Shown here in pieces: positions 39,906 to 59,041 of a stretch of 64,000 nucleotides of DNA. Location of the stretch: NCBI GenBank assembly GCA_903824785.1, contig CAIJYD010000051.1, forward strand, positions 45,926 to 109,925. Direction: 5' to 3'. Origin of the DNA: an uncultured Bacteroidota bacterium. GTDB taxonomy: Bacteria; Bacteroidota; Bacteroidia; Bacteroidales; VadinHA17. The notes beneath the pieces are model-generated. The model saw only the letters and a list, made by a program, of their open reading frames with translations, ran no database searches and was not told the DNA's origin. The position numbers were made by a program, and so were the translations under genes. Positions within the stretch are counted from its first letter, which is position 1. Every line of letters begins with the position of its first letter.

Positions 39906-40823
39906 TCATTTTGAACTGATGAGTTTCATCTGACTCATCCAGTCGATACAATACCCCATCCAGGTATCGCGCGAAAATCCTTTAAGAAAACCGTGATCAC
40001 CTTCGGGATAAATATGCAGCCCCGCAGAAACTGAATCTGAAAGCAGCGCTTTATAGAACATTATGCTGTTTTCAACCGGAACAGCCTTATCATCTCCTGC
40101 ATGAATAAGAAATGCAGGCGGAGTAAGCCGGCTAACCTGCTGCTCGTTTGAGAAATAGCTAACCGTTTCATTTGAAGGTGATTTGCCAAGGAGATTTTCC
40201 CTGGTTCCTTTATGTCCCGTTTTTTCAGAAAGAGAAATGACAGGATAGATCAGTAACATAAAATCGGGTCTCAGGCTGGTTCCATTTGCATTTTCTATGA
40301 ATGCCTTATTAAAATGAGTACCTGCAGTTGACGCCAGATGACCACCTGCAGAGAAGCCCATAATTCCGATCCTGGATGCATCAATATTCCATTCCGAAGC
40401 CCGTTCCCGGACTATCTTTATTGCCTGCTGTGCATCCTGAAGCGGACCGATAGATTTATCTTTCATCGTTTTGTCGTCAGGAAGACGATATTTAAGGACA
40501 AATGCTGCTACTCCGAGTTCATTGAATTTCCGCGCTACCTCATATCCTTCACGTTTAATCACATTTACTCCGTAGCCTCCGCCAGGACAAATAATAACAG
40601 CCGTGCCGTTTGCCTTCTCCTTGGCGGGAATAAAGAAGGAAATAGTTGGTTTTGAGATCTTATACAGCACCTCTCCATTCTCATTCCGGGACTCTTCGTC
40701 AGGAGCAGAAAGCGAGCCGGGAACTACTCCGGGGTATAATGGAATAGTTTCCTGTGACTTAACTGCTGAACAGGAGAAAATCAGCAGCAGCAGAACAAAC
40801 ATTGGTTTTATTTTCATATTCAT
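39906..40823 (-). CDS. secreted alpha/beta-hydrolase (esterase/lipase, CE10-like)
   Basis: Signal peptide FSCSAVKSQ. HGGG-like oxyanion region CPGGGY and nucleophile elbow GFSAGGH. ATGA overlap with the upstream radical SAM gene. Confidence 0.8.
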   Translation of the reverse strand: MNMKIKPMFVLLLLIFSCSAVKSQETIPLYPGVVPGSLSAPDEESRNENGEVLYKISKPTISFFIPAKEKANGTAVIICPGGGYGVNVIKREGYEVARKFNELGVAAFVLKYRLPDDKTMKDKSIGPLQDAQQAIKIVRERASEWNIDASRIGIMGFSAGGHLASTAGTHFNKAFIENANGTSLRPDFMLLIYPVISLSEKTGHKGTRENLLGKSPSNETVSYFSNEQQVSRLTPPAFLIHAGDDKAVPVENSIMFYKALLSDSVSAGLHIYPEGDHGFLKGFSRDTWMGYCIDWMSQMKLISSK

Positions 40824-41782
40824 GTTATTTTATCCGTTAAATCGCAGGAACATTTTTCGCGTATATTAAATTTCTGATGAAGGTTCATCTCTGTCAAACG
40901 GCTTATTCTATGATCAATACATTTACTACAACCTGAAAAGAGGTGTAAATCCCAGGTATCTGCAAACACCCGGCCTGAGTTCAGTCCGATGCCATATTCC
41001 AGGACGCTCTCCAGGGAGGAAATATCCGGAGGGGAGAAGAGTCCCTTTTCCAAAAGCTGATCCATTGCTCCGTTGCCGGCCCTCACAGGAATAACTGTAC
41101 AACATTCGATCCCGGTACTGAAAGCATAATCAATTGACCTTTCAGCCCAGTAAATACCTTCAGATTCAGACAAAAAAGGAGGTCTTAGCAAAATAAATGC
41201 TCTTGACCTGATTCCATTCTGAGTGAGAAAGCTTACAGAGTTTTTAAAATCTTCTGTTGTCATTTTCTTGTTAAGCTTTCTAAGTATCTCCGGATTAGCC
41301 GATTCGAGTCCCATGGCCACCTGCAATTCAGGCTTAAGCAAATTCCTGAATCTCAGGCACTTTTCATTAATAAGTCTGGGGTGACTCTCAACTATTACAG
41401 TTTCATAATTCTCAAGAAGCGAGGCAATCCTTTTATACTCTTTTTCAGGAATGGCCCTTTCATCAAAAAAGCTACCACTGTTATAGAGTTTCAGATGTTT
41501 AACATCAGGCAGCTGACTTAAAGCCCATTCAATCTGGTCAGAGATTGCACCGGCAGGAACTGATTCATCTGTTGTATTTTTCCACAGGTCGCACATCAGA
41601 CAATGAAAGGGACATTCCCTGTTTGTCAGAAAAATGATGGCAATATCTTCGATTCTCCCTGAAGCTGTTCTCTCCTTCTCAACTACCCACCCATACGGTT
41701 TCCGGTGATCGACAGAATTTTTCTTCCCCCGGCAGGATAAGATCCACCCGTCCGTTAATCCGGTGTCGGTATTCTCACTCAT
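40820..41782 (-). CDS. radical SAM enzyme (Elp3/RaSEA-like core)
   Basis: Canonical CxxxCxxC cluster motif in LTNRECPFHCLMCDLW. The NSGSFFDERAIP and VESHPRLI blocks resemble the TIGR01210/RaSEA-like group. Extra C-terminal Cys pairs (CSKC...CSC). Confidence 0.8.
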   Translation of the reverse strand: MSENTDTGLTDGWILSCRGKKNSVDHRKPYGWVVEKERTASGRIEDIAIIFLTNRECPFHCLMCDLWKNTTDESVPAGAISDQIEWALSQLPDVKHLKLYNSGSFFDERAIPEKEYKRIASLLENYETVIVESHPRLINEKCLRFRNLLKPELQVAMGLESANPEILRKLNKKMTTEDFKNSVSFLTQNGIRSRAFILLRPPFLSESEGIYWAERSIDYAFSTGIECCTVIPVRAGNGAMDQLLEKGLFSPPDISSLESVLEYGIGLNSGRVFADTWDLHLFSGCSKCIDHRISRLTEMNLHQKFNIREKCSCDLTDKIT

Positions 41783-43103
41783 AGATTGAAAGAAATTCCT
41801 TTCTGTAGGTCATTTCTTTTAAAGGAAACAGTTTGTCGAATGCTCCGCGGGAAGCAGCGCCGTGCTGAAAACGTCTTTTCTGGAAAACCGGCATATCCAT
41901 TCCTGTAACGGCTTTGATACCGTACGAAACGATCTGTCCCTTAAGGTCATAAAGTTTTTGATGATCCCAGCTGGTCATGTCAATATATGGAATTCCTTCT
42001 GAAATCTCAATAACATTTGGAAGGGTATATGGGCTGAATCCATTAAAACCAAGGATATCGGAAGTTGTGAAGCTCCGCATATATCCTCTGCTCAATCCGC
42101 CGGAATATGTAAGTGAATGCTTTATTGACTCCACTCCCCACCCTTCATGATAAAGCATCAGATTATTCAGTACGCTTCTTATTGTGAGTTCAGGATTTTC
42201 TTCAATCGGATAATCTTTCAGATTTTCATCTCCGCCTTCTCCGTCAATTAAATATTTCCAGTCGGGGTAGCGCGATCTGATTCCCTGAAGAAGAGCAAGA
42301 TTCATTGTTGCAGATTGAATATCAAGAGGTTTATAATCTTCAACAACCTTTATCGCATTCTTCCAGTCGAGTGATGAATAATCAACTTCAATGGGTTCCA
42401 GAAAGATATCAAGATTGAGCGCGGCAAGAAATTTTCTGGCCTGAATAAGGTCAGCTCCGTCGCCATCAATGGAAAGTGTGAAAGCTTTCAGCCTTGAAGG
42501 ACTTTCACCGAGCTCTTTCAGTGCATGATAAGTAAGAAGGAAAACTGAGCCGCTGTCAATTCCTGCAGAAAACGTAACACCGATGGGGCCGGTTTTTGCC
42601 TGAAACTGCAGCCATTTTTTTATCTCCGAGTACAATACTCCAATATAATCCGCTCCTATCTGTGCCGGATTTTCATCTAAAAACCTGTTCCGCTCAGGAG
42701 TGAAAAACCTGCTATAAACAGGATTAGGATCGGGGCAACCCAATAATTCAATTTTAGTAATATAATGGGCAGGAGCCATTCGGGTATAGGATGGATGAAA
42801 CTGATCTTCAAGACCTTCCTTTTTAAGATAATCATAGATAACGTCAATTCGTTCGGCAATAATCAGGTTAGGACCTGCCGGCCTTTTCGCAATGAAATAA
42901 CGTATCGGGCGGCCAATTGATCTTGCCATCCTGATCGTTTTTCCATCGACTGAGATCAGAGAAAACTGCCCGTCGATTTTTCTGACTGCTTCAACATCTC
43001 CGGAGCGGACAATATTAACTGCCTCTTCGTGAGTCATATTATAAATTACATTTTTTTCAGGATTTGTAAGATCCACAACCTTTTCCAGATATTGATTATT
43101 CAT
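41775..43103 (-). CDS. asparagine synthetase B / beta-lactam synthetase-like PP-loop adenylating enzyme without a glutaminase nucleophile
   Basis: PP-loop variant VTFSAGIDSGSV. The N-terminal domain keeps AsnB-like blocks (DGQFSLI, RSIGRPIRYF), but residue 2 is Asn (MNNQ...) rather than the Ntn Cys. 8-nt overlap with the radical SAM gene. Confidence 0.75.
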   Translation of the reverse strand: MNNQYLEKVVDLTNPEKNVIYNMTHEEAVNIVRSGDVEAVRKIDGQFSLISVDGKTIRMARSIGRPIRYFIAKRPAGPNLIIAERIDVIYDYLKKEGLEDQFHPSYTRMAPAHYITKIELLGCPDPNPVYSRFFTPERNRFLDENPAQIGADYIGVLYSEIKKWLQFQAKTGPIGVTFSAGIDSGSVFLLTYHALKELGESPSRLKAFTLSIDGDGADLIQARKFLAALNLDIFLEPIEVDYSSLDWKNAIKVVEDYKPLDIQSATMNLALLQGIRSRYPDWKYLIDGEGGDENLKDYPIEENPELTIRSVLNNLMLYHEGWGVESIKHSLTYSGGLSRGYMRSFTTSDILGFNGFSPYTLPNVIEISEGIPYIDMTSWDHQKLYDLKGQIVSYGIKAVTGMDMPVFQKRRFQHGAASRGAFDKLFPLKEMTYRKEFLSIYE

Positions 43104-43218
43104 ATTCCTGTTTTAAATCTTGATTCAAATTTTATTCTTACCTATTGTAATTATTCAAACATGCAACAATAATTTCCAAGCGGTCAATTCTATAAAGTCC
43201 GTTTTTGCCGTCCTCTGA

Positions 43219-44991: not shown

Positions 44992-45002
44992 TAAACATAT
45001 TA

Positions 45003-48000
45003 TTATTTGATTTTCAAAGCATTAAGATAGGCATCGCGGGTTACTACCCGGGTATTATACTCCTGATGATAATTCTGAAGTTCAGGATCATCGGGGTATT
45101 TATCATCCGGTGAAGGGGGGTAAGCTGACATACCATGAAAAGGAAGCGGAAGCACAGTATTCCCGGTTGCCGTGTTGATATCACCGTCTTTTACCCAGCC
45201 AACACTGTTAATAAGAAAATCCCTTTTCCACCCGGCTTTTAGTTCAGGTAATCCCTTCTGATCAAACCTGACAGATGTTTCGTCACCGGCGTTGGAGATA
45301 ATGTATTTATTATCGGACTCTGTCAGCAGAGGCAGCACATCACCGTATCGGGTATAGCTTCCCGGCAAGTCTCTCCATTTATGATTTGTATCAACATTGG
45401 AATAATCAAACCAATGGGGACCGAACCGGCCGCCTTTTCTAAAAGAGCCGGAGAAACCCCTGTAATGAATTTCGGCTGAAACCGGATTCATTACTGTTGA
45501 AACCTGTGGCGCATCTGAAAGTTCATCGGAAAAAAATATCTGATCCCAGTAGATCTCCATATTGGTTAAGATCCTTATCCTGTGATCGGATGAAAGAAAT
45601 TTACCGGAAAGGTCGGCAATTACCATTTTGTCTTTACCCATCGGGAAGCCCGGATTGTTAATTACCGTTTCCCATGCCCCTTTTTTATTAATAACCTGTA
45701 TGACTGGCGGATTAACTTTCAGGTTACCTGATTGTGAAATGGCCACGTTAATGCTGGCATCAGTGGGGAAGATCCATCCATTCATGAAAAGAAATAATTT
45801 TCCATCCTTACCAATTTTACCCGGATCGAGAATGAGCTCTTTCATGGCTGTAACTCCCTGATATTTATCGGGTTTGAAATCAGATACATATTTATCATCT
45901 TTTTCGGAGATAACCGGAAGCAGATCGTTTCCCTGCGAATCGGTAGCCGAAAGGGGAAGATGCTTATCCCTGACCTGGTAGGTTTTCATTCCGGGAAAAG
46001 GAGGGGGAGAAAACTGTTCCGCAACAAACAGGTCAACTGAATCGGGATGATCGACAGCCACCAGGCGGATCTTATCGAGATATATTGTCTCCCACAATTC
46101 AGATGTGAGCTGAATGGAATAGATTCCCTCTTTCGGTTTTAACACCTCTGAAGGAATTTTAATATAGTCATCCGATGCATCGGCGAAAGCATAAGCAGTT
46201 GCACCGCCCATGATACCCAGCGGCATACCGAGTGCACTTCTCCAGAGAATATCCTTTACAAAAACAAATGCTTCTCCGTTCCAGGTATAAAGAAACGGGC
46301 ATGACCCTTTCAGCGTTTGTGCTTCAATAAGTGACTGATCTGTACCGGGAAAGAAGATATTCTGAGGCACGCCGTTTGTCCAGGTAATTCTGATAACATC
46401 TGCTGTTGAGCGGTGTCCAACGCCAAAATGGACATTAGGATCGGTAACCGTGGTAGTCTGATAAAGGTCTCCTGACCGCATTTCAACTTTTGCCCCAATC
46501 CCGAAATGGTTGTTTTTCGCACTTCCGGCTCTCAGCCCTACAAGTTTAACCCTGAGAAAATGGTTATTGTTACCACCGTCATTGCGTAAAAGGGAGATCC
46601 CTCCGTTCATGCCGGCGATGACAAGGTCGAGGTCGCCGTCATCATTGTAATCAAATACTGCTATCTGCCTTCCCGACTTCACCTCTTCAGGCAAAAGATG
46701 GGAAACACCGGAAAAGTTTCCTTTCCCGTCATTATAATAAAGGAATAACCCTCTTCCTCCTTTTTCCTTAGGTTCACCGGCAAAAAGAAGATCGAGATAT
46801 CCGTCGTTGTTAAAATCGAAAAAAGAGGCGTCATAACCTTTTACATTCTGAATTGAGCTGAACATCTCTTTTGAGTTTTTCTCCAATTCGAAAGTGCCAT
46901 CGCCCCTGTTCCTGTATAACCGGTGAACTTCTCCGCTTACTGAAGTGATGAAGAGATCAAGAAATCCATCATTATTATAGTCTCCTGCCACGACCGAACC
47001 GGATCCACCTTCACTTTTCAAACCGCTTTCAACAGTAATATCTTTGAAGAGACCCTGTCGCTGATTTGAGTATAAAATATTACCTGCATTTTCATTTACG
47101 ACAATAAAATCGATATCCCCATCTTCATCAAAATCGCCAAAGGCTGCATCGCGGCTGTTAACATCCGAAGCTGACAATCCCATTTTTCCGGCTTGCTCCT
47201 GAAAAGTGCCATCGGAATTATTTCTGAACAAAAGGTTTGATTTATTTCCCGTTTCAAACAGATCCAGATCTCCGTCATGATCAAGATCGAAAGCCAGAGC
47301 CATATTTCCTCCGGTTTTACTACCGATAAGAGCTTTATTTGTGACATCTTCAAACGCACCTTTCCCGGTGTTCCGGTATAAAATATCACCATCTTCTTTT
47401 ACAATGAACAGGTCGGTGAAGCCATCGTTATCAAAATCGGCCAATAAGGCTGAAGTTTCTTTGCCTGAATGAGTTATTCCGGTTTCAATTGAAACATCAG
47501 TGAATCTTCCCATCTCATTATTGAAAAGAAAATGTTTCCAGGATGAAGTTGCCGGATCGTAACTACCTGCATAAAGATCTATATCACCATCCCCGTCATA
47601 ATCGGCAGCTGCCACGTGAGAAGGATATTCTGAAAGAGGAACAAGATCCAAACCTGCAGAAGAAGTTACATCATTGAATTTAACGACATCCAGAAGAGAT
47701 TGATTTTCAACTATCTGAGTAAGCATCTGCTGATCAAAAGTAATCAGAGGAAATCCTATGAGCGAACCACCGGGGCCCTTTAAATCCATTATGCCTGCCT
47801 GATACGGAGATGTTACTTTCAGATAATTATGAAAAATCGTAAATTGAATAATCGCATTTCCCTTATCCTGTTTTTTCAGCAATGACGATGCTTTATCGTA
47901 ATATTCAATAGCTTCCTTTGGGAATTCGGGGAACTGTTTATGTATTATTTCAAGTTTTTCAAGAGCCTTATCGTTTTCTCCGTTGACGATATAGATCTCT

Positions 48001-48569
48001 GTCAGGTTAAGGAGCGGTACTAAATTTCCGGGGGCTTTTTCAACGAGCTGAAGTAAATAGTTCTCACGTTGCTTCCGGGAATCCTCATCTGAAGCTGCAG
48101 TGTATAATTCAGAAAGATCATATAGAATTTTTATATTGTCGGGAGCAAATTTAAGAGCCTCTTTAAGTTCTGTAACAGCTTTTTCCCGTTGATCATTCAT
48201 CTGGTAAACTGTTGCCAGAATCAGACGGATGTCAGGATCGGCAGCATCAATTTTAATTGCTTTCAGCAGTTGTTTTTCAGCTTCCGGATACCTTCCCATT
48301 CTAAGGTAGGCAAGGCCGAGGTTTGCATATCCCAGTTTCTCTTTGGGTGCCAGTTTAATAAACTTCAGGAACTCTTTTTCCGCATCTTCCAGTTTAAACT
48401 CTTCAAGATAGGCAAGTCCCAGAGTTTTTATTGTCATCAGATCAAGAGATTTCTGCTTTGCTTTCTCCGGACTCTCCTTACAACCTAAAAATGAAAGGGA
48501 GATAATTGCAAACAAGAGCAAAATTTTCAGGCTATATTTAATATTACACATAAAAGTATTGAATTTCAA
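45003..48569 (-). CDS. TPR plus FG-GAP plus ASPIC/UnbV lipoprotein with a large uncharacterised C-terminal module
   Basis: Lipobox SFLGC. About 250 aa of TPR-like repeats (LGLAYLRMGRYPEAEKQLLKAIKID...), then FG-GAP motifs. ASPIC block NHFLRVKLVGLRAGSAKNNHFGIGAKVEM...ITWTNG. About 430 aa follow without a recognised motif. Confidence 0.85.
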   Translation of the reverse strand: MKFNTFMCNIKYSLKILLLFAIISLSFLGCKESPEKAKQKSLDLMTIKTLGLAYLEEFKLEDAEKEFLKFIKLAPKEKLGYANLGLAYLRMGRYPEAEKQLLKAIKIDAADPDIRLILATVYQMNDQREKAVTELKEALKFAPDNIKILYDLSELYTAASDEDSRKQRENYLLQLVEKAPGNLVPLLNLTEIYIVNGENDKALEKLEIIHKQFPEFPKEAIEYYDKASSLLKKQDKGNAIIQFTIFHNYLKVTSPYQAGIMDLKGPGGSLIGFPLITFDQQMLTQIVENQSLLDVVKFNDVTSSAGLDLVPLSEYPSHVAAADYDGDGDIDLYAGSYDPATSSWKHFLFNNEMGRFTDVSIETGITHSGKETSALLADFDNDGFTDLFIVKEDGDILYRNTGKGAFEDVTNKALIGSKTGGNMALAFDLDHDGDLDLFETGNKSNLLFRNNSDGTFQEQAGKMGLSASDVNSRDAAFGDFDEDGDIDFIVVNENAGNILYSNQRQGLFKDITVESGLKSEGGSGSVVAGDYNNDGFLDLFITSVSGEVHRLYRNRGDGTFELEKNSKEMFSSIQNVKGYDASFFDFNNDGYLDLLFAGEPKEKGGRGLFLYYNDGKGNFSGVSHLLPEEVKSGRQIAVFDYNDDGDLDLVIAGMNGGISLLRNDGGNNNHFLRVKLVGLRAGSAKNNHFGIGAKVEMRSGDLYQTTTVTDPNVHFGVGHRSTADVIRITWTNGVPQNIFFPGTDQSLIEAQTLKGSCPFLYTWNGEAFVFVKDILWRSALGMPLGIMGGATAYAFADASDDYIKIPSEVLKPKEGIYSIQLTSELWETIYLDKIRLVAVDHPDSVDLFVAEQFSPPPFPGMKTYQVRDKHLPLSATDSQGNDLLPVISEKDDKYVSDFKPDKYQGVTAMKELILDPGKIGKDGKLFLFMNGWIFPTDASINVAISQSGNLKVNPPVIQVINKKGAWETVINNPGFPMGKDKMVIADLSGKFLSSDHRIRILTNMEIYWDQIFFSDELSDAPQVSTVMNPVSAEIHYRGFSGSFRKGGRFGPHWFDYSNVDTNHKWRDLPGSYTRYGDVLPLLTESDNKYIISNAGDETSVRFDQKGLPELKAGWKRDFLINSVGWVKDGDINTATGNTVLPLPFHGMSAYPPSPDDKYPDDPELQNYHQEYNTRVVTRDAYLNALKIK

Positions 48570-48656
48570 GCGGTTTGGACTGGATTCTCATTTAACCCTT
48601 TAATGTTTTTTATAGCATCAAATTTAAGAAATAAAAAGAATTTAATACCGTGGTTT

Positions 48657-49802: not shown

Positions 49803-49818
49803 ATTCTGAAAGTTATGG

Positions 49819-50679: not shown

Positions 50680-50698
50680 TTTCTCTTTTTCTGTGATA

Positions 50699-52012
50699 TT
50701 AATAACTTCCGGTTTTGCTGCCTGTTTTTGTCTTCAGATCCAAAGGAGGAGCCGGAGAAAATAAGAACTTACCATTCCTTACTTCAGCCATAAATATGTC
50801 TCCCATATCATTCCAGCTTCCATCCAATATAATCTTCCCGGTTATCCCCTGATATCCCTGAAATGTCTTTCTGTCGGTAAGCACATCGCGCAGAAGGACG
50901 CGGTTAAGTCCCACTTTACGGATAGCTTCAATAGTTATGTTCATACCATCATAAGCATGTGCAGCAAACACATCTGGCTCCTGTCCAAACCTCTTCAGGT
51001 AATCTGCCTGAAAGGTTTTCAGTTTAGGATTATCCGAATCAGGATTATACTGACAAGTAGTAACAACACCTTCAGCCAGATTGCCGGCTATTTTCAGAAA
51101 CTCAGGAGAAACAACCCTGTCGGAACAATAGACAGGCTGTTTCAAGCCTGCTGAACGAATCTGTTTGAGAATAAGTGCTGACTCTTTTGCATTTCCCCAA
51201 ACTAAAATTGCATCAGGTGAAGTTCTTTTAATCCTTTCGAGTTGTGAAGTAAAATCGATATCTCCGTCAAGAAACCGTTCTTCAATGACAACCGGATGGC
51301 CAATGCGGATTGCCGCATCGGTATATTCCTTTATACCCACACGTCCATACCGGTTATTAGGTCTGATAACAGCAACACGGGTATGTCCCTCCTTTTCATG
51401 TATATAATTAAGCAATGCGTATGAGCTGGCTCTGTCATCGCTTATCACACGAATCGTCCAGGGTATGTTTGTCTCTGTATAAGTTGGGTCGGGATTTCCT
51501 GTACAGACCATAAAGATCTCAAGCTTTAAAGCAGCACGCAGGGCAACATGGGAAACAATATCGTCAATTGAGCCAAGAAAGAGCCAGACTTTTTCATCAT
51601 CCATTTTTACCACTTCGTTGGCTGCAGCACCCCATAAACCGGCATCATTATGAGGCATTAAGACAAACGGCAAACCACGGTAACCTCCTTTTTTATTAGC
51701 CGCTTCAAGGGCCAGTGTTGCTCCCTGAAGCATCTGCAAACCCTGAGGAACCATTATAGAACCGCTTAAAGGCCCGAGAAAACCAATTCTTACTTCTTTC
51801 AGACCAGAAGGGGCAAGTTTTTCACGACCGGCACCATTAAACGTGAGAGGGATAAGAAAGTGATATTTATAAGCTTTAGTGAAATTCTGATATGGGAAGA
51901 TCTCATCAGGTGCTTTTCCGTAGTTCTGTGTTTTCTCCTGTCCATAAACGAAGGAAACAGGAAGAATAAAAATCAACACAAAGATTGCAGTAGAACAGAA
52001 TTTAGCTTTCAT
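50699..52012 (-). CDS. LivK-type (Peripla_BP_6) periplasmic substrate-binding protein, orphan paralogue
   Basis: Start moved to the Met of [25 protein letters not shown] (signal peptide). The longest ORF (to 52063) would overlap the upstream gene by 41 nt. [19 protein letters not shown] parallels the other binding protein. Confidence 0.75.
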
Positions 52013-52022
52013 TATTCTTTTA

Positions 52023-52598
52023 TTATACAGATTTACATATTGCGTATGCTTCAATTTCAACAAGCAGGGTCTCCCAGCATAATCTTGCCTGAATCCCTGT
52101 GCTTGCCGGAAGAGGATCGAGATTCATCCACTGATAAAAAGAGGTACGGATCTTATTGAATTCGGCATAATCCCGCTCAATGTCCCTGAGGTAATTTGTT
52201 GTTCTCACAACATCGTGCCACGACATTCCTTCTGCCTCCAGAAGTGTTGTAATATTGCGGTATGTTCTCCATAGCTGAGCCTTAAAATCACCAATATGTT
52301 CAGGTTTCCCCTCTTCATTTACGCTGGCAGTACCCGAAATCAATAAAACTTTATAGCCTCCAAAGTCAAGTCGCAACGCTCTTGAGAAAGAGGATGGTTT
52401 CTGGTAGTCGTAAGCTTCATTCAATACCTGAGGAGCATGCACAACATGTTTCTCTATCGGAGGACGACCTATATGCACGGAAGGATAGATGAACCCTGAT
52501 ATCTTGTTCTCATCCGTCAACATTCCGAGTTTTTTCATCTCAATCTTTTCTCCATCTGTAAGTTTTGCCAGATCAATCAGTAACTGCTTATCACCCAT
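52023..52598 (-). CDS. RidA/YjgF-fold protein with a chorismatase-like (FkbO/Hyg5-type) ISGTAS signature
   Basis: The C-terminal 130 aa follow the YjgF pattern (...VRTTNYLRDI...PASTGIQARL...LVEIEAYA). The active-site strand reads LLISGTASVNEEGKPEHIGDFKAQ rather than the SGQ of canonical RidA. There is a ~60-aa N-terminal extension and no signal peptide. Confidence 0.6.
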   Translation of the reverse strand: MGDKQLLIDLAKLTDGEKIEMKKLGMLTDENKISGFIYPSVHIGRPPIEKHVVHAPQVLNEAYDYQKPSSFSRALRLDFGGYKVLLISGTASVNEEGKPEHIGDFKAQLWRTYRNITTLLEAEGMSWHDVVRTTNYLRDIERDYAEFNKIRTSFYQWMNLDPLPASTGIQARLCWETLLVEIEAYAICKSV

Positions 52599-52652
52599 TA
52601 TTTCTTATATTTTAATTTTAATATTCGTTTTAGTATTTTCAGTGAACTGTTT

Positions 52653-53852
52653 TTATTTCATCAACTCCCCGCGGCTTACTCCTTTTGAAGTGGCAACCCA
52701 TAATACGTCAGCATCAGCATCAACACCAATAATAAAATTATGTGAAATTGATGGAGAGAGCGGAAGTTCTTTTTTCTGAGTACCATTTATTATTATGGCC
52801 ATTCCATTACTATTGTTTTCATTCTTTTTATAGGTAACCCAGTTTTTCCCGTCCGTAGTACTAAGTCCCTTATCGGAGCAGATAAAAACCCATGGCCCCT
52901 CTGCCCGTACAAAGTTGATGAAATTACTTGCAAGACCGCTGTCGTGATCAAAAAATCCCTTCCAGTGAGAACCATCATAACTGGATAATCCAAAGTAGGT
53001 TGACACCCATAGCATTCCATTAGCGTATGTTGTTCCGGTTGTTATATCATGAACAGGGCCATCATCGGGAAGAAGATCTATTTCCATCTCTCCGTCTGGA
53101 TCAGTGTAGTCTCTGAACTGTTTTGTTTTGGTTGTATATTCTATTACTCCTCCGCCCCAGGCAGCAATAAAGATCTTGCCATCTCCTGCAGAGATTCCGT
53201 ATGTCCATGGTTCATGCATAGGAGCATTCTTTTCAGTAAAAATCTCCCACTTTTTTGTATAGGTATCATATTGGCCGGCACCACCTCCTGTTGCAACCCA
53301 AACATCTTTCCCATCACAGATAACGCAATAGACCAGATCGTTTGGCATTCCGCTGTTGAACTGGGTAAAATTTTCAAATTTACCTCCCGACCAGCAGCTT
53401 AATCCTCCAAGGGTTCCGATCCAGACATCACCAGTAATTTCACTGACATCAATTGATACAACCCCGTTATGCGGCAACCCATCTTTTGAAGTATAGGTCC
53501 GCCACTTGCCTTTTTCATAAACGGCAAGCCCATCATGAGTACCAACTAATACCCTGTCGCCGTCAATACGAACGCAATAGGCTTTATCAGAAGGCAATCC
53601 GTCTTTTGTTGTAAAATTTTTCCAATTACCATATACAGGTACAGGTTTTGAATCCGCTTTCGAATCACTTGTTTTACTGCCAGTTTCAGTCAATCCTTTC
53701 AGATTACCATCAGTAACCGGCTTATCCGCAGTTATATCATTTCTATAGCCAGGCTGATTCTCAACAATGATAAATCCTGTTGAAAGTAAACCTGAAATGG
53801 CAACCGGGAGCATAGCAAATTTAAACCAATTCCTTTTATCTCTCTTTTTCAT
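52653..53852 (-). CDS. membrane-anchored beta-propeller built from two-component-regulator propeller (Reg_prop) repeats, no output domain
   Basis: N-terminal TM helix. Repeated units of the form F/Y-T-x-x-DGLP-x-x-x-V-x-x-I-x(n)-VW-x-G/A-T-x-GG-L (for example FTTKDGLPSDKAYCVRIDGDRVLVGTHDGLAVY and YTSKDGLPHNGVVSIDVSEITGDVWIGTLGGLSCW). Confidence 0.7.
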   Translation of the reverse strand: MKKRDKRNWFKFAMLPVAISGLLSTGFIIVENQPGYRNDITADKPVTDGNLKGLTETGSKTSDSKADSKPVPVYGNWKNFTTKDGLPSDKAYCVRIDGDRVLVGTHDGLAVYEKGKWRTYTSKDGLPHNGVVSIDVSEITGDVWIGTLGGLSCWSGGKFENFTQFNSGMPNDLVYCVICDGKDVWVATGGGAGQYDTYTKKWEIFTEKNAPMHEPWTYGISAGDGKIFIAAWGGGVIEYTTKTKQFRDYTDPDGEMEIDLLPDDGPVHDITTGTTYANGMLWVSTYFGLSSYDGSHWKGFFDHDSGLASNFINFVRAEGPWVFICSDKGLSTTDGKNWVTYKKNENNSNGMAIIINGTQKKELPLSPSISHNFIIGVDADADVLWVATSKGVSRGELMK

Positions 53853-53870
53853 ATTTTGTCTCTTTTTATA

Positions 53871-55895
53871 TTAAAATGAAGCATGATATAACTTTGAAGA
53901 TTTATGTTCATAGGCCGGAGCTCTAAGTGATTTCAGATAATCGACCAGATCGTTAAGCTGATTTTTTGTCATGTCATTTGCCAGTCCATGCTTATCTTCC
54001 TTACCATACTTTGTCCAAATCTCTTCAAGAGTCGCTGCGCGTCCATCGTGCAAATAGGGAGGGGACGCAAAAATATTATTAAGGTGTGGTGTGTCAAACT
54101 GAATCGAATCGTCAGATATAGCCAGCGTACCTACACTGGCAAGTTTTAAATTTGTAAAATATGGCGGAGGATGACAGGTAATGCATCTATTATTTTCAGG
54201 GATTATTTTACCTGTATTATCCTTTGAACGTTCAAAAAGATCTTTCCCCCGAAGCTGCGATTCAGTAAGTTTTCCTTCGGGGTTATACTGCAGATTAGGA
54301 GGATAATGAATTCCTGTTATTATATAGGCTGTTATTGCATCAAGGTTATTATAACTAAACTGTTCAGTCCTTGTAAGAACAGTAGAAAATCTCATCCCGT
54401 CCTGTTTGTAAACGGTCTGGTTTTTACCATTCCATTTAAATGGAGGGGTATCGCCAATATCGCGTAATGACTGGGTATTGGTAAGGTTACGTCCCATATC
54501 TTTTGAGGCCATATTGTACACAAGGCCATCCTCATGCATATCGGGGTGGCAGGTATAGCAATCGAACTGATTCTGAAATGTATGTCCTGAATTGTTAAAA
54601 AGCCTGCGCCCCTGACGGGCAACAGTAATTCTCCGCGGACCGCCAAGATCGATAGAATTGATTTTCTCAAGCGTTTCAGTATTTATAACTCCAATCCTGT
54701 CTTCGAGCTGTTCGGCAACATAAAGACGTTTCCCGTCAGGAGAAAGAACGAGTCCTTTAGGATCAGCACCGGTTTTAATGCGTTTGATAACATAGCGGCT
54801 GCTTATTCCAAGATTATTCGAATAAGTTTTAACCACTTCAGGTGTAGCTTCAGCAATTAAGCTCCTTACAGAGTCGATATCGACAACAGAAATGCAATTA
54901 ACACCGGAATTTGAAATAAAAGCTTTTTTGCCATCCGGAGAGATAACAATATCGAAGGGATCGCAATAATAGGCATTCGGTTCATCGAGCAAAAGCTGAA
55001 TAACCCGGCCATTTTCCTTCTGTTCAACAATACCTATTCCATAAGTCATCATCCACCCCTGTTCAACCTGTATTGAAGGAACAAGGTTCTTTGGTCTGAT
55101 AAGTGTAATTATTGCCAGATCTCCGCCCGGAGTAAAGGCAATGTTCTCCATGATATATGCCGATTCTATGGTCTTTCGTTCAGTAACTCTTTGCCTGCTC
55201 TCATCAATTACAGTAAGCTCACTTTTAAGGGTATCGCCGTATGGGGCAAGAAGAGCACGCCTGCTGGTAACATATAAAGTTTTGCCATCGGGTGAAAGCT
55301 GGGTTCCTGTAGGATTATTACCTGCAGTAAATCTTTTTCGTTCTTCTCCGGTATTGAGGTCAATAACAGTAACATCTGAAGAAAAAGAATTTACGATATA
55401 AAGTAATTTGTCGTCGGCGCTTAAGGAGAGGCCTGCAGGACCATTTCCTGTTAAAAGAGTATCAACCACCTTCGATTTGGCCAGATCTATTACCGACACA
55501 TTATCAGACCACTGATTACTCACATAAGCCTTTTCTCCCCTGTCATCAATTACCACACTATGAGGGTACTCTCCGACTTTTATCTTATTTAATACCTTAT
55601 GACTTTCAGGATCAACTACCATCAACGTATTTGCCTCCTGTGCCACGACATATAGTCTGTCACCGTTTTTGGAAACAGCCATATTGAACGGCGAATAATA
55701 ATCAGCATTAATAAGCTTTGAGACAAGTGGATTCTTTGAGGTATAAAGATGGCAGGAGATACAGAGAAGAGGATGATCTTCAACAGCAGTCTTGGTATTA
55801 ACATGTTTCCGGGCTATTTTGCGTCCGGGGAAATATATGGCCAAACCAACCACAAAAAGAATTCCAAAAATCAACAATAATTTTGATGTCTTCAT
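53871..55895 (-). CDS. tri-haem c-type cytochrome: YVTN-type beta-propeller fused to a di-haem cytochrome c peroxidase/MauG-like domain
   Basis: N-terminal TM anchor. Three CxxCH motifs (CISCH, CYTCH, CITCH). YVTN-like blades (LYVVAQEANTLMVVD, AYVSNQWSDNVSVIDL, LYIVNSFSSDVTVIDL, LYVAEQLEDRIGVIN). The C-terminal TPHLNNIFASPPYLHDGRAATLEEIW matches the CCP/MauG signature. Confidence 0.8.
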   Translation of the reverse strand: MKTSKLLLIFGILFVVGLAIYFPGRKIARKHVNTKTAVEDHPLLCISCHLYTSKNPLVSKLINADYYSPFNMAVSKNGDRLYVVAQEANTLMVVDPESHKVLNKIKVGEYPHSVVIDDRGEKAYVSNQWSDNVSVIDLAKSKVVDTLLTGNGPAGLSLSADDKLLYIVNSFSSDVTVIDLNTGEERKRFTAGNNPTGTQLSPDGKTLYVTSRRALLAPYGDTLKSELTVIDESRQRVTERKTIESAYIMENIAFTPGGDLAIITLIRPKNLVPSIQVEQGWMMTYGIGIVEQKENGRVIQLLLDEPNAYYCDPFDIVISPDGKKAFISNSGVNCISVVDIDSVRSLIAEATPEVVKTYSNNLGISSRYVIKRIKTGADPKGLVLSPDGKRLYVAEQLEDRIGVINTETLEKINSIDLGGPRRITVARQGRRLFNNSGHTFQNQFDCYTCHPDMHEDGLVYNMASKDMGRNLTNTQSLRDIGDTPPFKWNGKNQTVYKQDGMRFSTVLTRTEQFSYNNLDAITAYIITGIHYPPNLQYNPEGKLTESQLRGKDLFERSKDNTGKIIPENNRCITCHPPPYFTNLKLASVGTLAISDDSIQFDTPHLNNIFASPPYLHDGRAATLEEIWTKYGKEDKHGLANDMTKNQLNDLVDYLKSLRAPAYEHKSSKLYHASF

Positions 55896-55897
55896 AT

Positions 55898-57337
55898 CTA
55901 TTCCAATGAAATCTTTTTTTCAGCGATTTTACTAATGTGAACCGGAATAACGACCGGAGGATTTTTAACTGACATTGACAACCTGTTTTCCGGAACTATC
56001 TCACGGTCCTCATGGCATCCGACACATCCACGCCTCTCATTTGGCCTTAGCCAGATCCAGCCACCCGGTCCGTTCAGAACTTTTCCTTTTTCATCAATCG
56101 TCTGAATCCTGAATGGGGTATCAGCTATCACTTTTAAATAGACCGAGCCATCTTTCTCAACATTTACCACACCAAGTGTTGAATCAATTCCCAGAACCTC
56201 AATCATACCGGCGTTGAGAACAGAGACTGAACTTACTGATAGGGGATCCGTGAAATTGATATCCTGGCAAAAGAGCAACCCCGATTTCACTCCAAAATCT
56301 ACTTCGCTTGGCAATTTTTTTGGTCTGTCATGTGTTTCAACTGCAACAGCTTCCAGAACATTGTAATCTGCATTGCTATAAAGAACAGATCCGAGAGATT
56401 TTTTATCAGGATCAAATTCATAAAGTGAATATGTTTTTGCTTCCGGCGAACGGTAAGAAACCATAAGTTTTCCTGAATTTAAAGGGAAGGGAGGACCGAA
56501 ACTTCCTTTAATTTCGGAAGTTAAATTAACCCTGCTGTGCAAAGGGCGGTTATATTTAACTGAAATTAAATTTCCTCCTGACAGGGTATCGGAGTCTGAT
56601 TCTGTAAATATTATATTTCCATTTGTAGTTTCCCTTATCCTGCTTTGCAAAATACTACCCTCCAATCCTTTATAGAATAGTTCCGATTTTGTGCCGTCAG
56701 GTCTTAAAACCATCAGCACAGGATCACGATTATCCGGGAAAAGTTGTCTGCTGATTGTCACTACGCGACCATCTTTTAAAACAGAAGAAGCGAAATAAGT
56801 ATGAGGATTGAAAGTAACACGTTTAAGGTCAGAACCATCAAGGTTGCAAGTATAGAGTGAATGCCCTGCCTTCATTGTTTCTTTCATATCGATCTTGCTG
56901 AATAAGATGCGTCCTCCAGGTAAATAAGCAGGATCGATACAGTTTTCCAATGAAGAGAAAACCTGTTTTATTTTCATATTATTCAGATTCATCTCCCAGA
57001 TCTGCCACGGATCGTTCTGTTTTTGCTGAGCAGAAAAGAGCATCGATCCGGCATCATAAGAAATATCAGGAGAGAGTGCAGAATAGAATCCTCCTGTAAG
57101 CAGCTTAACCGGTTTTTCTGGTTTACCGGGGTCAATTGCAACAATGTTAGCCTGAGAAATATATCGCCAGGAATCTCCGGAAAAATAATTTCCTTTCTTT
57201 ATCTCTCCTGCATATTGAGTTAAAATGACCATCCCGTTCATTGACTTTCCCCTGCAGGAAGAAAAGAAAATGGTAAATAAGCCAATAGCCACTATTAATA
57301 AGAGTGAAAGGGCAGCTCTGTTTCTGTTCATTAACAA
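55898..57337 (-). CDS. TolB-like beta-propeller lipoprotein with a C-terminal single CxxCH haem-binding motif
   Basis: Lipobox FFSSC. TolB/WD40-like blades (DPWQIWEMNLNNMKIKQV, LYTCNLDGSDLKRVTF, VLRPDGTKSELFY). The C-terminal segment is WIWLRPNERRGCVGCHEDRE. Lies 2 nt from the next gene. Confidence 0.7.
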   Translation of the reverse strand: MLMNRNRAALSLLLIVAIGLFTIFFSSCRGKSMNGMVILTQYAGEIKKGNYFSGDSWRYISQANIVAIDPGKPEKPVKLLTGGFYSALSPDISYDAGSMLFSAQQKQNDPWQIWEMNLNNMKIKQVFSSLENCIDPAYLPGGRILFSKIDMKETMKAGHSLYTCNLDGSDLKRVTFNPHTYFASSVLKDGRVVTISRQLFPDNRDPVLMVLRPDGTKSELFYKGLEGSILQSRIRETTNGNIIFTESDSDTLSGGNLISVKYNRPLHSRVNLTSEIKGSFGPPFPLNSGKLMVSYRSPEAKTYSLYEFDPDKKSLGSVLYSNADYNVLEAVAVETHDRPKKLPSEVDFGVKSGLLFCQDINFTDPLSVSSVSVLNAGMIEVLGIDSTLGVVNVEKDGSVYLKVIADTPFRIQTIDEKGKVLNGPGGWIWLRPNERRGCVGCHEDREIVPENRLSMSVKNPPVVIPVHISKIAEKKISLE

Positions 57338-57343
57338 CTATTT

Positions 57344-59041
57344 TTAAGGTTCTTTAACCGAAAGGATCTGATTAGCTTTGACATTCTCCAAGACCTGAAC
57401 TTTACCTGATGGCCACTTAATTTCAATTTTTTCAACCATCTCATTTTTTGCAAGTCCAAAATGGAGACGAGGATCATTCTGTGAAAGGTAACCTGTTGTA
57501 CTTCTTTTCTGTGCTGTCTGAACTTTTCCACCGGAAATGACCTTTATCCTGGAGCCTAATCCATCTCTGTTACTGGTAGTTCCTGTTAAATCGAGGGTGA
57601 GCCAGTTATTCTGATTTCCTTTATTGTTTCGCAGTAATACTCCCCGGTCGTTAAGGTTCACTATAAAGGCATCAATATCGCCGTCGTTGTCGTAATCACC
57701 CAGACATGCTCCGCGCCCAACCAGCTCTTTCTGAAAGTATTTTCCACGTTCAGTTGAAACATCAAGGAATTTTCCATCGCCTGAATTTTCAAATATCTGG
57801 TCTTCATGCCCGTACAGATGCTTCAAGGCACCATTTGTTTTAAAAATGTCCACATCACCATCATTGTCATAATCCACAAAAGAGGATGACCATCCGACAT
57901 ACTGGGCTGCTGCCATTGAAATACCGGAACTATAAGATCTGTCAGAAAAGACGCCGTTCCCAATGTTTTCATAAAGAGAACAGTACTTATCATCAGAAAC
58001 GAACAGGTCGAGAAGTCCGTCTCCGTTATAGTCGGCAAAATCGACCGACATACTTACAGTTGCTTCTCCTGCCTGGCTGAAGGCTGTTCCCGACATTGTC
58101 CCCTTATCAGTAAATCCTTTCCCTCCGTCGTTATGCCAGAGATAATTCACTGTATGATCATTTGCTACATAAACATCCACGAAACCATCATCATCATAAT
58201 CGGCTGCCCCCACGCCCATGGCCCTTCCGTCAAGGTCGGTTATTCCCATGGCTTTGGTAACATCTTCAAAGATACCATCTCCCATGTTGTGGTAAAGGAA
58301 ATCCGGCTGACTGTCATAAGCCATAGGGCCCGGAAATCCATCGGGAGCATAGTAATATTTATACTGAGGATCAAAATTCAGGTAGTTCCCGACGTAAAGA
58401 TCAAGCAGGCCGTCATTATCATAATCAAACCAGACAGCTCCTATACTGCATTCATTTCCTGCTACTTTGGCTTTTTTTGTTACATCAGAAAAAGTTCCGT
58501 TACCATTGTTTTTATAAAGTACATTGGGGCCGTAATTACTTACATAAAGGTCAGGAAAACCATCGTTATTAAAATCGCCTACTGTTACACCCATGCTGTA
58601 GCCATGACCACCGACACCGGCTTTTTTGGTAACATCTTCGAAGGTACCATTCTGAAGGTTACGGTAAAGATGGTTCTCAGGCAACTTACCGGGTTTTTCG
58701 GTCCCGGTGAAACCTTCGAGCCATGTCCCGCTGCAGACATATAAATCAATATAGCTATCCTTATCATAATCAAGAAAAGCAGCTCCGCCACCGCTTGATT
58801 CGACAATATTGGTGAGATGTTCAGCACCTATAGAATGGACAAAATCAAGTCCGATCTCCTCATCTATCTCCTGAAAAAAATCATCATTTGCCGGTGCAAG
58901 AATTTCAGCAGATTGCTTCTTCAACTGTGAGGAAGGCTTATTATCCGACTGGCATCCGGACAGTATCAGCATAATAAAGAAGACGGATAATAAATACCCA
59001 TAATCATTCACACTGATGTAAATATTTCTAATTGTAATCAT
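57344..59041 (-). CDS. CRTAC1-family lipoprotein (FG-GAP repeats with C-terminal ASPIC/UnbV domain), first gene of the array
   Basis: Lipobox ILSGC. FG-GAP motifs (LDYDKDSYIDLYV, GDFNNDGFPDLYV, FDYDNDGLLDLYV, ADYDDDGFVDVYV, ADYNGDGLLDLFV, VDYDNDGDVDIF, GDYDNDGDIDAFI). ASPIC block NNWLTLDLTGTTSNRDGLGSRIKV...RLHFGLA...IKWPSG. Confidence 0.85.
   Translation of the reverse strand: MITIRNIYISVNDYGYLLSVFFIMLILSGCQSDNKPSSQLKKQSAEILAPANDDFFQEIDEEIGLDFVHSIGAEHLTNIVESSGGGAAFLDYDKDSYIDLYVCSGTWLEGFTGTEKPGKLPENHLYRNLQNGTFEDVTKKAGVGGHGYSMGVTVGDFNNDGFPDLYVSNYGPNVLYKNNGNGTFSDVTKKAKVAGNECSIGAVWFDYDNDGLLDLYVGNYLNFDPQYKYYYAPDGFPGPMAYDSQPDFLYHNMGDGIFEDVTKAMGITDLDGRAMGVGAADYDDDGFVDVYVANDHTVNYLWHNDGGKGFTDKGTMSGTAFSQAGEATVSMSVDFADYNGDGLLDLFVSDDKYCSLYENIGNGVFSDRSYSSGISMAAAQYVGWSSSFVDYDNDGDVDIFKTNGALKHLYGHEDQIFENSGDGKFLDVSTERGKYFQKELVGRGACLGDYDNDGDIDAFIVNLNDRGVLLRNNKGNQNNWLTLDLTGTTSNRDGLGSRIKVISGGKVQTAQKRSTTGYLSQNDPRLHFGLAKNEMVEKIEIKWPSGKVQVLENVKANQILSVKEP

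Follow-up and report, generated by a model that had tools for sequence, protein, structure and literature searches.

Our analysis of a 64,000-nucleotide stretch of DNA from an uncultured bacterium of the Bacteroidales (contig CAIJYD010000051.1, positions 45,926 to 109,925; hereafter the window) concerns a tight array of thirteen minus-strand genes, which we call g1 to g13 in the order of their transcription, from position 59041 down to 39906. We are confident that the array represents one conserved cluster of hydrazine synthase (HZS) homologues. We also lean, if only modestly, towards a fuller reading in which it is the clade III HZS-homologous system of Bacteroidota, an envelope haem system of two linked modules that would work by the mechanism proposed below.

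The haem-propeller pair g2-g3

At the centre of the array lie two genes only 2 nucleotides (nt) apart, g2 and g3, whose products are predicted to be exported or membrane-anchored c-type cytochromes homologous to HZS. The g2 protein combines a beta-propeller with the HZS_alpha middle domain and one haem c site (C438-x-x-C441-H442), lacks an alphaII domain and ends 37 residues past its single CxxCH motif (438-442). Its top match in NCBIfam is hydrazine_alpha (9e-32, 109.8 bits against a cut-off of 800), and its sole sequence match in the PDB is HZS-alpha (5C2V_A), with which it aligns colinearly through the propeller and the middle domain up to the alphaI CxxCH. At the position four residues after the motif's His, where HZS has the Tyr that serves as proximal ligand of haem alphaI, g2 has E446. 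The g3 protein consists of an N-terminal membrane anchor, an extra haem c site (C45-x-x-C48-H49), a seven-bladed YVTN propeller and a di-haem CCP/MauG-like domain. Its CxxCH motifs, at 45-49, 446-450 and 571-575, are thus three and not two, which corrects an earlier note on this DNA in which g3 was counted as di-haem. Hydrazine_BC is its top NCBIfam match (1e-69, 235.5 bits against a cut-off of 1250), followed by 205 bits with HZS beta (cut-off 560) and 80.6 bits with HZS gamma (cut-off 625); the NCBIfam equivalogs of true HZS are NF052339, NF052340, NF052341 and NF052342. In the PDB g3 matches HZS-beta over its full length (5C2V_B, 2.7e-50) as well as HZS-gamma (5C2V_C, 3.7e-18), and the alignments of the two proteins to chains A, B and C of 5C2V are colinear.

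Among 54 orthologues all four CxxCH motifs of the pair are invariant, as are C28 of g2, H31, H41, H616, H636 and W488 of g3 and, overall, a small group of His, Trp and Met positions. W488 aligns with gamma-His144 (PPFKWNG against PPFRHEG), and at the position of gamma-Cys165 there is an alignment gap and no Cys in g3. The C-terminal domain of g3 carries a PxYxHDG-type motif, and the protein has weak matches to MbnH, MauG and the beta subunit of quinohemoprotein amine dehydrogenase (QH-AmDH); PF03150 is exceeded by the whole-protein score (34.1 bits, cut-off 25.6), yet no single stretch passes alone. Because the scores fall far under the curated cut-offs, we regard g2 and g3, as judged from their sequences, as distant homologues of HZS and not as a hydrazine synthase, and since the HZS-specific residues are absent, a chemistry other than hydrazine synthesis is to be expected. 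The adjacent-gene architecture of true HZS is there; scores above the equivalog cut-offs, a two-haem alpha subunit and the gamma-His144/Cys165 pair are all missing. No HAO/HDH-type gene was identified among the window open reading frames (ORFs) scanned.

The earlier note had seen no described pathway with this gene set, but the core of the array has already been published. Hagglund et al. (Genome Biol Evol 2025, PMC12758564) described co-localised alpha-like and fused beta-gamma-like genes in four clades. Clade III is characterized there by an FG-GAP/CRTAC1 gene upstream of the alpha-like gene, which in turn lies upstream of the beta-gamma-like gene, by a short alpha-like protein without haem alphaII, by one extra haem motif in the beta-gamma-like protein, by two substrate-binding-protein genes downstream and by a Trp that replaces gamma-His144. 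We find each of these features in the window array, and the g1-g2-g3 order in every related locus that covers it; the hit tables of that study include CAIXCY010000079 and JADGPT010000008, which are two of our related loci (L022 and L016). The same authors concluded that the homologues of clades I-III, in which HZS catalytic residues are missing, cannot make hydrazine, assigned no function to them, and reported that the HZS-like clusters which other phyla have as clades I and II likewise include an FG-GAP/ASPIC gene. A 2023 note on metagenome-assembled genomes (MAGs) of Phycisphaerae and KSB1 suggested that hzs-like genes belong to a broader enzyme family with other substrates. These two sources and archaeal RaSEA work were all that we found in the literature on HZS-like genes, bacterial CRTAC1/ASPIC/UnbV proteins and bacterial TIGR01210/RaSEA enzymes, and DAHP synthase, Rid, AsnB-like or radical S-adenosylmethionine (SAM) genes are mentioned neither in PMC12758564 nor in the 2023 note. 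The g4 propeller, the Rid protein, the TPR-FG-GAP protein g9, a linked two-component system and the separate distribution of g9-g12 go unreported for clade III (PMC12758564). What is new here is thus the full twelve-gene unit with its embedded DAHP synthase and Arg-less Rid protein, the stability of this unit, the dedicated two-component system beside the array in relatives and the separate distribution of the g9-g12 module.

The likeness to HZS of anammox bacteria (Kuenenia stuttgartiensis, 5C2V) extends to the propeller with haem-bearing middle domain, the seven-bladed propeller, the CCP-like di-haem domain, the adjacency of the genes, the export of the cytochromes c and the fusion of beta and gamma, which is also found in Scalindua; alpha-like proteins of Bacteroidota are about 21-24% identical to Kuenenia HZS-alpha (tables of PMC12758564). 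In contrast to the anammox enzyme, g2 is truncated after haem alphaI and has the canonical His ligand and no Tyr, g3 has gained an N-terminal haem and a membrane anchor and has Trp for gamma-His144 and no gamma-Cys165, the gene order is reversed, and there is neither an anammoxosome context nor an HDH/HAO partner. With di-haem CCP, MauG and MbnH the C-terminal domain of g3 shares two CxxCH motifs, the PxYxHDG-type motif and an inter-haem Trp. Unlike in those proteins, however, it is fused to a propeller and an extra haem, is paired with a second haem protein and scores far below equivalog level, and its second haem looks, from the alignment, bis-His as in HZS gamma-II, not His/Met or His/Tyr.

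Conserved gene order and the two modules

ORF calling recovered the thirteen minus-strand ORFs (Table 1) with the spacing given in the earlier note: successive gaps of 6, 2, 18, 54, 10, 19, 16, 87, 11 and 115 nt and then overlaps of 8 and 4 nt, where the 10-nt gap between g5 and g6 presumes an ATG start of g6 at 52012 (the upstream TTG at 52063 would make it a 41-nt overlap). With Pfam and NCBIfam we obtained the same domain calls throughout, and the division of the products into two localisation classes was also reproduced, an N-terminal hydrophobic segment, lipobox or signal anchor being found in g1, g2, g3, g4, g6, g8, g9, g10 and g13 and in none of g5, g7, g11 and g12.

Related loci were drawn from a scan of one genome per GTDB species with the g8 alignment as bait, which found relatives at 209 sites; the best 80 of these were taken with 10-kb flanks and, together with four metagenome contigs (L001-L004), give 84 loci. 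The thirteen window proteins were searched against them with tblastn, and an absence was counted only where the position was covered. All 80 loci kept from the scan belong to species-representative MAGs of Bacteroidota, with record titles that name Bacteroidales, Prolixibacteraceae, Rikenellaceae, Lutibacter, Flavobacteriaceae and Chitinophagaceae and, for many of them, an origin in fen, peat, permafrost, lake sediment or soil metagenomes. All 84 loci are colinear for g1 to g12, which keep their order and a common strand, and the four long contigs, whose g2 homologues are 58-62% identical, have an identical order from g1 to g9. The chance juxtaposition that would have undone the earlier note's proposal is ruled out by these 84 colinear loci: the conserved unit is g1-g12, held together by selection.

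Within this unit g1, g3, g4, g6, g8 and g9 are never absent where covered (g1 is present in the 54 loci that cover its position, with a median identity of 74%; g6 is covered in 75 and g8 in all 84, and both are always there), and g2 and g10 are each absent only in L035. Losses are more frequent for g5 (absent at its usual place in 13 of 67 loci), g7 (5 of 83), g11 (6 of 57) and g12 (6 of 52). Median amino-acid identity to the window proteins ranges from 51 to 83% across genes and is highest, at 83%, for g11 and g5. The junctions are tight in all lineages: from g1-g2 to g11-g12 their median distances are 12, 2, 11, 56, 8, 19, 20, 75, 2.5, 82 and -8 nt, mostly between 2 and 20 nt; the last value comes from 46 loci, and the g10-g11 spacer shrinks to just 2-29 nt in several loci. 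In one contig (L001:11437-13471) the beta-gamma-like gene was called as two overlapping genes, for a 386-residue propeller and a 308-residue di-haem protein, which is either an assembly frameshift or a fission of beta and gamma like that of Kuenenia.

The thirteenth gene did not share in this conservation. No homologue of g13 was found in the 46 loci that reach at least 0.6 kb beyond g12, where the following genes vary from locus to locus (truA, a yeeE-like gene and other unrelated ones), and g13, although its 4-nt overlap with g12 would suit translational coupling, seems to have joined the operon recently and in this lineage only, and lies outside the conserved unit. The thirteen-gene array of the earlier note therefore stands for g1-g12 and not for its last member.

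We read the array as a module A (g1-g8, HZS-like) and a module B (g9-g12), because g11-g12 occur elsewhere together with g9- or g10-type genes and without HZS-like genes. The evidence comes from four non-Bacteroidota loci (L085-L088) and from 80 metagenome loci (L093-L172) found in a scan anchored on the g11 family, with GC contents of 36-72%. The nearest non-Bacteroidota relatives of g11 are about 55% identical, and those with names belong to Acidobacteriota, Thermoanaerobaculia and Gemmatimonadaceae; for the most distant branch of the family (P0182-like) the metagenome scan yielded main-family loci only. In L085-L088 a g12 homologue comes next after the g11-like gene, and after it the gene of a flavoprotein of 500-580 residues, with no HZS-like gene nearby. 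A g12-like gene likewise follows the g11-like gene, without HZS-like genes, in 48 of 63 metagenome loci, and the flavoprotein follows the pair in 27 of 56 (stand-alone operons are found, for example, at L085:10001-13911 and L172:7968-11858). The flavoprotein, which weakly matches CmlS, QhpG, GoxB, LodB and geranylgeranyl reductase, has no counterpart in the window or in any Bacteroidota locus.

Outside the arrays the g11-g12 pair tends to adjoin FG-GAP/ASPIC genes and not shikimate genes; an FG-GAP/ASPIC gene lies within 8 kb in 17 of 56 loci, corresponding to 7 of 28 sequence clusters. Specific counterparts of g9, g10 or g1 are placed beside the pair in four different ways. At L152:3232-10337 a 1090-residue protein that aligns with g9 over its whole length (E 2e-103) is encoded upstream of g11-g12 on the same strand, at L164:1-5485 a g9-type gene is divergent from the pair, and at L156:7977-12011 (66% GC) a full-length protein 65% identical to g10 comes directly after it. 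A g1-like gene (39%) is convergent with g11-g12 at L172:7968-16758 and in similar loci, and in L172 and at L086:10001-15837 a membrane protein of the NQR2/RnfD/RnfE family (298-303 residues) is encoded between FG-GAP genes. The two modules also stay adjacent after rearrangement: a contig of 38% GC (L162:6147-17296) has the permuted order g10-g11-g12-x-g1-g2-g3, with identities of 66% for g10, 72% for g11, 64% for g1, 38% for g2 and 51% for g3, where x encodes a 218-residue PA14-like lipoprotein and g12 was called as a 252-residue fragment, perhaps through a frameshift.

Table 1. Genes of the array and two spacers, with positions in the window
Feature	Description	Position	Strand	Basis
g1	FG-GAP/ASPIC (CRTAC1-family) lipoprotein, 565 aa	57344..59041	-	FG-GAP_3 7e-51, UnbV_ASPIC 1e-22
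g2	HZS alpha-like lipoprotein, 479 aa	55898..57337	-	Pfam HZS_alpha 6e-19
g3	HZS beta-gamma-fusion-like protein, 674 aa	53871..55895	-	NCBIfam hydrazine_BC top match
g4	membrane-anchored single Reg_prop-type beta-propeller, 399 aa, no kinase part	52653..53852	-	Pfam Reg_prop
g5	cytoplasmic Rid-family protein, 191 aa, with 80-aa N-terminal extension	52023..52598	-	Ribonuc_L-PSP 2e-16
g6	exported LivJ/HAAT-family solute-binding protein	50699..52063 (likely ATG 52012)	-	Peripla_BP_6 1.6e-47
g7	type I-beta DAHP synthase, catalytic core only, 286 aa	49819..50679	-	NCBIfam
g8	second exported LivJ/HAAT-family solute-binding protein, 381 aa	48657..49802	-	Peripla_BP_6 2e-44
g9	lipoprotein with TPR, FG-GAP propeller and ASPIC, 1188 aa	45003..48569	-	Pfam
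g10	FG-GAP/ASPIC (CRTAC1-family) exported protein, ~590 aa	43219..44991	-	Pfam
g11	cytoplasmic AsnB-superfamily ligase (predicted), 442 aa	41775..43103	-	Asn_synthase 2e-9
g12	radical SAM protein, TIGR01210/RaSEA family, 320 aa	40820..41782	-	TIGR01210 1e-35
g13	BD-FAE/acetyl-esterase-like lipoprotein, 305 aa	39906..40823	-	domain matches in Pfam/NCBIfam; 4-nt overlap with g12
spacer upstream of g1	AT-rich, 193 nt; candidate Bacteroidota-type promoter	59042..59234	-	
g8-g9 spacer	87 nt, with second TAnnTTTG box at 48619-48626	48570..48656	-	motif match

Apart from the haem pair, the exported products of the conserved unit (g1, g4, g6, g8, g9 and g10) are predicted to be proteins of ligand-binding type, with no enzymatic signature and no transporter partner. 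The lipobox of g1 reads LSGC. The best PDB matches of g4 are the periplasmic sensor propellers of Bacteroides hybrid two-component systems (4A2L, 1.5e-24), those of g6 are the amino-acid binding proteins 3TD9, 3HUT and 4GNR, and g8 also matches 4GNR (6e-23). The only PDB sequence match of g10 is human CRTAC1 (9ETN). The last 432 residues of g9 (window 45003-46301) have no Pfam match; the Bacteroidota orthologues nevertheless share this C-terminal third, as do the full-length homologues found in L152 and L164, which align over residues 11-1176 (E 1e-103). No BPD_transp or ABC_tran gene is present in the array or in the gene calls of L001-L004, and neither a SusC/D gene nor a glycoside hydrolase or lyase was found inside g1-g12, whether in the window or in the related loci. 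We thus agree with the earlier note that the array is not an ABC transporter operon, a two-component locus or a polysaccharide utilisation locus (PUL), and an envelope redox machine, as it proposed among other options, is still the best reading for the exported half.

The two cytoplasmic genes of module A are frequent yet dispensable accessories. The DAHP synthase g7 passes the cut-offs of its families (NF006421, 441.9 against 335 bits; TIGR01361, 394.6 against 267.75) and has no regulatory FXD or chorismate mutase domain. The Rid-family protein g5 reaches 43.5 bits with TIGR00004 (RidA), under the cut-off of 106.25, and the alignment to PH0854 (2DYY) places PAS where RidA has its PAR motif. 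The Arg of this motif (R105 in E. coli) we take to be the catalytic residue of the Rid family, and g5 would accordingly be without it. A chorismatase, for which the support was only a partial match at 4e-5, was rejected as an identity of g5, which has a single Rid domain.

In module B, g11 has the PP-loop SAGIDS and a vestigial N-terminal domain, and its start, MNNQYLEK, is without the Cys2 nucleophile; it scores 30.3 bits with TIGR01536 (AsnB), under the cut-off of 267. Its AlphaFold2 (AF2) model (pLDDT 85) finds beta-lactam synthetase as best fold (1MBZ, E 1.7e-13, TM 0.64, full length), followed by ASNS, AsnB, TsnB9 and the carbapenam synthetase CarA. The model points to an ATP-dependent, amide-forming ligase that would use no glutamine hydrolysis. 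The PP-loop synthetase domain and the vestigial N-terminal domain without Cys nucleophile are shared with beta-lactam and carbapenam synthetases; g11 is, however, just 15-16% identical to them, has no beta-lactam pathway context and belongs to a distinct, narrow and highly conserved family (749 clusters among 1.84 billion representatives). Its partner g12 matches TIGR01210 over its full length, with 123.5 bits and thus under the cut-off of 212.15, and has the motif C57-x3-C61-x2-C64 and seven further invariant Cys; its AF2 model (pLDDT 88) gives generic radical SAM folds only (Elp3, MgmA, PFL-AE). PDB sequence searches with g11 and g12 returned nothing significant. RaSEA works in complex with ArcS, which attaches lysine to the substrate before RaSEA converts the adduct (PMC11298593), and the conserved 8-nt overlap of g11 and g12 suggests, by analogy, a two-enzyme complex akin to ArcS-RaSEA. 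Just as RaSEA of Thermococcus kodakarensis is complexed with ArcS, g12 is translationally coupled to a group-transfer or ligase partner; unlike there, this partner resembles AsnB and beta-lactam synthetase and not ArcS/TGT, the context is not one of tRNA modification, and g12 has the seven extra Cys. A cluster for lasso peptides or other ribosomally synthesised and post-translationally modified peptides was considered and rejected, as there is no B-protein or recognition element (RRE) and the stretch before g11 does not consistently leave space for a precursor gene.

Possible chemistry and rival readings

In the mechanism that we propose, g2 and g3 would assemble into an HZS-like complex at the inner membrane, on its periplasmic side, with g3 as the anchored partner. 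Electrons would enter through the extra, membrane-proximal haem of g3 (C45/C48/H49), cross a bis-His, gamma-II-like haem (H575, with H636 as candidate distal ligand) and reach a five-coordinate, gamma-I-like catalytic haem (H450) beside W488, at the position of the CCP/MauG Trp. A small product would then move on to the lipoprotein g2, at whose only haem, ligated by His, a second reaction would take place. That g2-g3 have such an HZS-like two-site architecture is, in our judgement, evenly poised. As a best guess, the complex would convert a small N- or O-species akin to NO, NH2OH or H2O2, either reductively or peroxidatively, and perhaps with an amine or amino acid as co-substrate bound by the LivJ-type proteins g6 and g8; a nitrogen compound as substrate is a tentative idea, and one that we hold to be rather improbable. 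The products of g1, g4, g6 and g8 could be ligand-capturing or scaffolding subunits. Module B would couple two FG-GAP/ASPIC lipoproteins to the translationally coupled cytoplasmic pair g11-g12, in which, by analogy with ArcS-RaSEA, g11 may attach an amine donor to a carboxylate and g12 may trim the adduct.

Several observations weigh against this reading. The catalytic residues of HZS are not conserved in g2 and g3, and the two-site tunnel logic may therefore not carry over. Since g5, g7 and g11-g12 are each missing from some arrays and module B also exists by itself, the modules may have separate functions and share no more than their regulation. For the cytoplasmic enzymes there is no obvious route to the Sec-exported lipoproteins, FG-GAP/ASPIC genes are abundant in these genomes and some of their adjacency to g11-g12 could be due to chance, and the analogy of g12 with RaSEA rests on a family match below cut-off, with no ArcS-like partner present. 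The earlier proposal that the array couples an envelope machine to the synthesis of an aromatic or amide small molecule is, in its simple form, also weakened, because the DAHP synthase and the Rid protein are dispensable and the AsnB-like/radical SAM pair is autonomous.

The strongest rival is that the operon assembles independent units with no biochemical coupling, that is, an HZS-like unit (g1-g4, g6, g8), a g9-g12 system and the metabolic hitchhikers g5 and g7. We consider this unlikely, although not negligibly so: module B does occur alone outside the Bacteroidota arrays, some arrays that are complete in other respects lack g5, g7 or g11-g12, and the widest junctions are g8-g9 and g10-g11 (medians of 75 and 82 nt), the first of which has a TAnnTTTG box in the window. 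Yet the order of the genes is kept in all 84 loci, across MAGs of Bacteroidales, Flavobacteriales and Chitinophagaceae, while both flanks vary, the modules are still adjacent in the permuted L162, the g10-g11 spacer can be as short as 2-29 nt, and the FG-GAP/ASPIC gene in HZS-like clusters of clades I and II (PMC12758564) means that this family bridges both modules. A second possibility, distinctly less probable, is a system for a protein-derived cofactor of the MauG or quinohemoprotein amine dehydrogenase (QHNDH) type, in which the di-haem domain of g3 would oxidatively mature or serve the cofactor of a propeller protein, g11-g12 would be cytoplasmic maturases (with the LodB/QhpG-like flavoprotein in other phyla) and amines or amino acids from the LivJ-type proteins would be oxidised. 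The placement of W488 at the Trp of CCP and MauG instead of the His of HZS (PMC12758564), the matches of g3 to MbnH, MauG and QH-AmDH beta, the resemblance of the non-Bacteroidota flavoprotein to QhpG, GoxB, LodB and CmlS, binding proteins of amino-acid/amide (HAAT) type and the presence of a Rid-family protein all speak for it, and QhpA-G indeed shares with the array a di-haem protein, a seven-bladed propeller, a cytoplasmic radical SAM enzyme and, in the non-Bacteroidota loci, a flavoprotein. However, the matches are all weak and mostly cover generic FAD-binding or propeller regions, so that we take QhpA-G as an analogy only. The array has no gene for a small, cofactor-bearing gamma subunit, no SPASM-type radical SAM enzyme like QhpD, no protease and no dedicated exporter, the flavoprotein is found in no Bacteroidota locus, and g5 is cytoplasmic and without the Rid catalytic Arg.

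Much fainter is the prospect that the array assists polysaccharide utilisation by sensing glycans or binding polymers at the surface or in the periplasm, with only a minor redox part for the haem proteins. The likeness of g4 to the sugar-sensing propellers of Bacteroides hybrid two-component systems, the FG-GAP/ASPIC genes that adjoin SusC/SusD in L002, L003 and L086, the PUL 7 kb away in the window and the acetyl-esterase-like g13 would fit such a role, but SusC/D, glycoside hydrolases and lyases are missing from the conserved unit in every locus, g13 is not conserved, and the most conserved and defining genes are those for cytochromes c and cytoplasmic enzymes. That the genes encode a genuine hydrazine synthase, by which Bacteroidota would form N-N bonds from NO and ammonium in a cryptic process of anammox type, we hold to be barely conceivable. 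Although the closest families are HZS alpha, beta and gamma and the alpha-like and fused beta-gamma-like genes are adjacent, the equivalog cut-offs are missed by wide margins (110 against 800 and 235 against 1250 bits), g2 lacks both the domain of haem alphaII and the Tyr ligand of haem alphaI, gamma-His144 is Trp, the gamma-Cys165 link is missing and no HAO/HDH-type partner was seen in the scanned window ORFs; Hagglund et al. reached the same conclusion for clades I-III (PMC12758564). Our preferred reading, the two-module envelope haem system, can itself be pressed further. A working two-site haem enzyme would perform a nitrogen transformation that is new to the nitrogen cycle; it would, for instance, reduce NO or hydroxylamine at the gamma-I-like haem and condense it with an organic amine or amino acid from the LivJ-type proteins, making an N-N or N-C bond in the periplasm of abundant anaerobic Bacteroidota of wetlands and sediments, and module B would be a lysine-type amine-donor amidation system (a ligase plus a RaSEA-like C-N lyase) that serves CRTAC1-like propellers. 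We think it very unlikely that all of this joint reading holds.

Regulation, surroundings and significance

The promoter signals of the array are modest. Some 25 nt before the ATG of g1 the spacer has the TAnnTTTG box TATGTTTG, at 59067-59074 on the minus strand, as the earlier note had seen. Because this motif is not enriched in the window (48 found against 59.8 expected), the box is only a weak sign of a promoter; just 14 of 54 orthologous loci have the motif in the 150 nt that precede g1. The second box (Table 1) makes an internal promoter possible at the boundary of modules A and B. A scan of the window for sigma-70 promoters gave 52 against 45.9 expected, terminator-like sites numbered 31 against 17.3 expected, with none in the spacers of the array, and Rfam at its gathering thresholds found no RNA family anywhere in the window and no riboswitch or leader in the spacers.

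A candidate for regulation comes from the relatives. The absence of a kinase and a response regulator, stated by the earlier note, is true within the window, where no homologue of either was found. In at least 22 of the 84 loci, however, the array has as neighbours an OmpR-type response regulator and a HAMP/HisKA sensor kinase (for example at L001:4256-6302), which are orthologous and 57-89% identical from locus to locus, and their absence here is a local accident. In 19 loci (L001, L003, L004, L008, L010, L012, L016, L023, L025, L026, L034, L039, L057, L061, L062, L066, L069, L076 and L082) the two genes immediately precede g1 and share its strand, and in three (L040, L043 and L048) they are found just downstream of g12 on the opposite strand.

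Base composition is flat over the array (GC 0.40-0.44) and thus gives no sign of its recent transfer. Convergent with the array lie two further FG-GAP/ASPIC genes for double-propeller proteins of 1100 residues (window 32270-35602 and 35761-39066, plus strand), followed by a gene for a 259-residue lipoprotein without Pfam match (39095-39874); similar 1100-residue proteins adjoin SusD genes in L002. Beyond them, on the minus strand at 16143-31983, is an ordinary-looking PUL with SusC-like (21721-24933) and SusD-like (20088-21710) genes and genes for a GH3 protein with PA14 insert and for GH5, GH20, DUF4838 and DUF5060 proteins, which marks the host as a saccharolytic member of the Bacteroidota. 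Upstream of the array (59235-63977, minus strand) are genes for a DUF6528 lipoprotein, an MFS sugar transporter, a SelA/aminotransferase-like protein with an N-terminal hydrophobic region and an aldo-keto reductase with a 4Fe-4S dicluster domain, and none of these upstream genes is kept beside the array in other loci.

To our knowledge, hydrazine synthase was long believed to have no relatives, and its distant homologues are the only handle on the origin of this key anammox enzyme. Our results show that the Bacteroidota branch of these homologues is no stray gene pair and lies within a strictly conserved twelve-gene unit. For experimenters this provides a defined list of parts, a regulator that can be probed for the inducing signal and candidate co-substrates of amino-acid type, while module B offers a link, across phyla, between bacterial CRTAC1-like proteins and a ligase/radical SAM pair. 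Activity of the complex on nitrogen oxides or hydroxylamine would make it relevant to the nitrogen cycle of wetlands; even without such activity it would still define the ancestral chemistry behind the evolution of hydrazine synthase.

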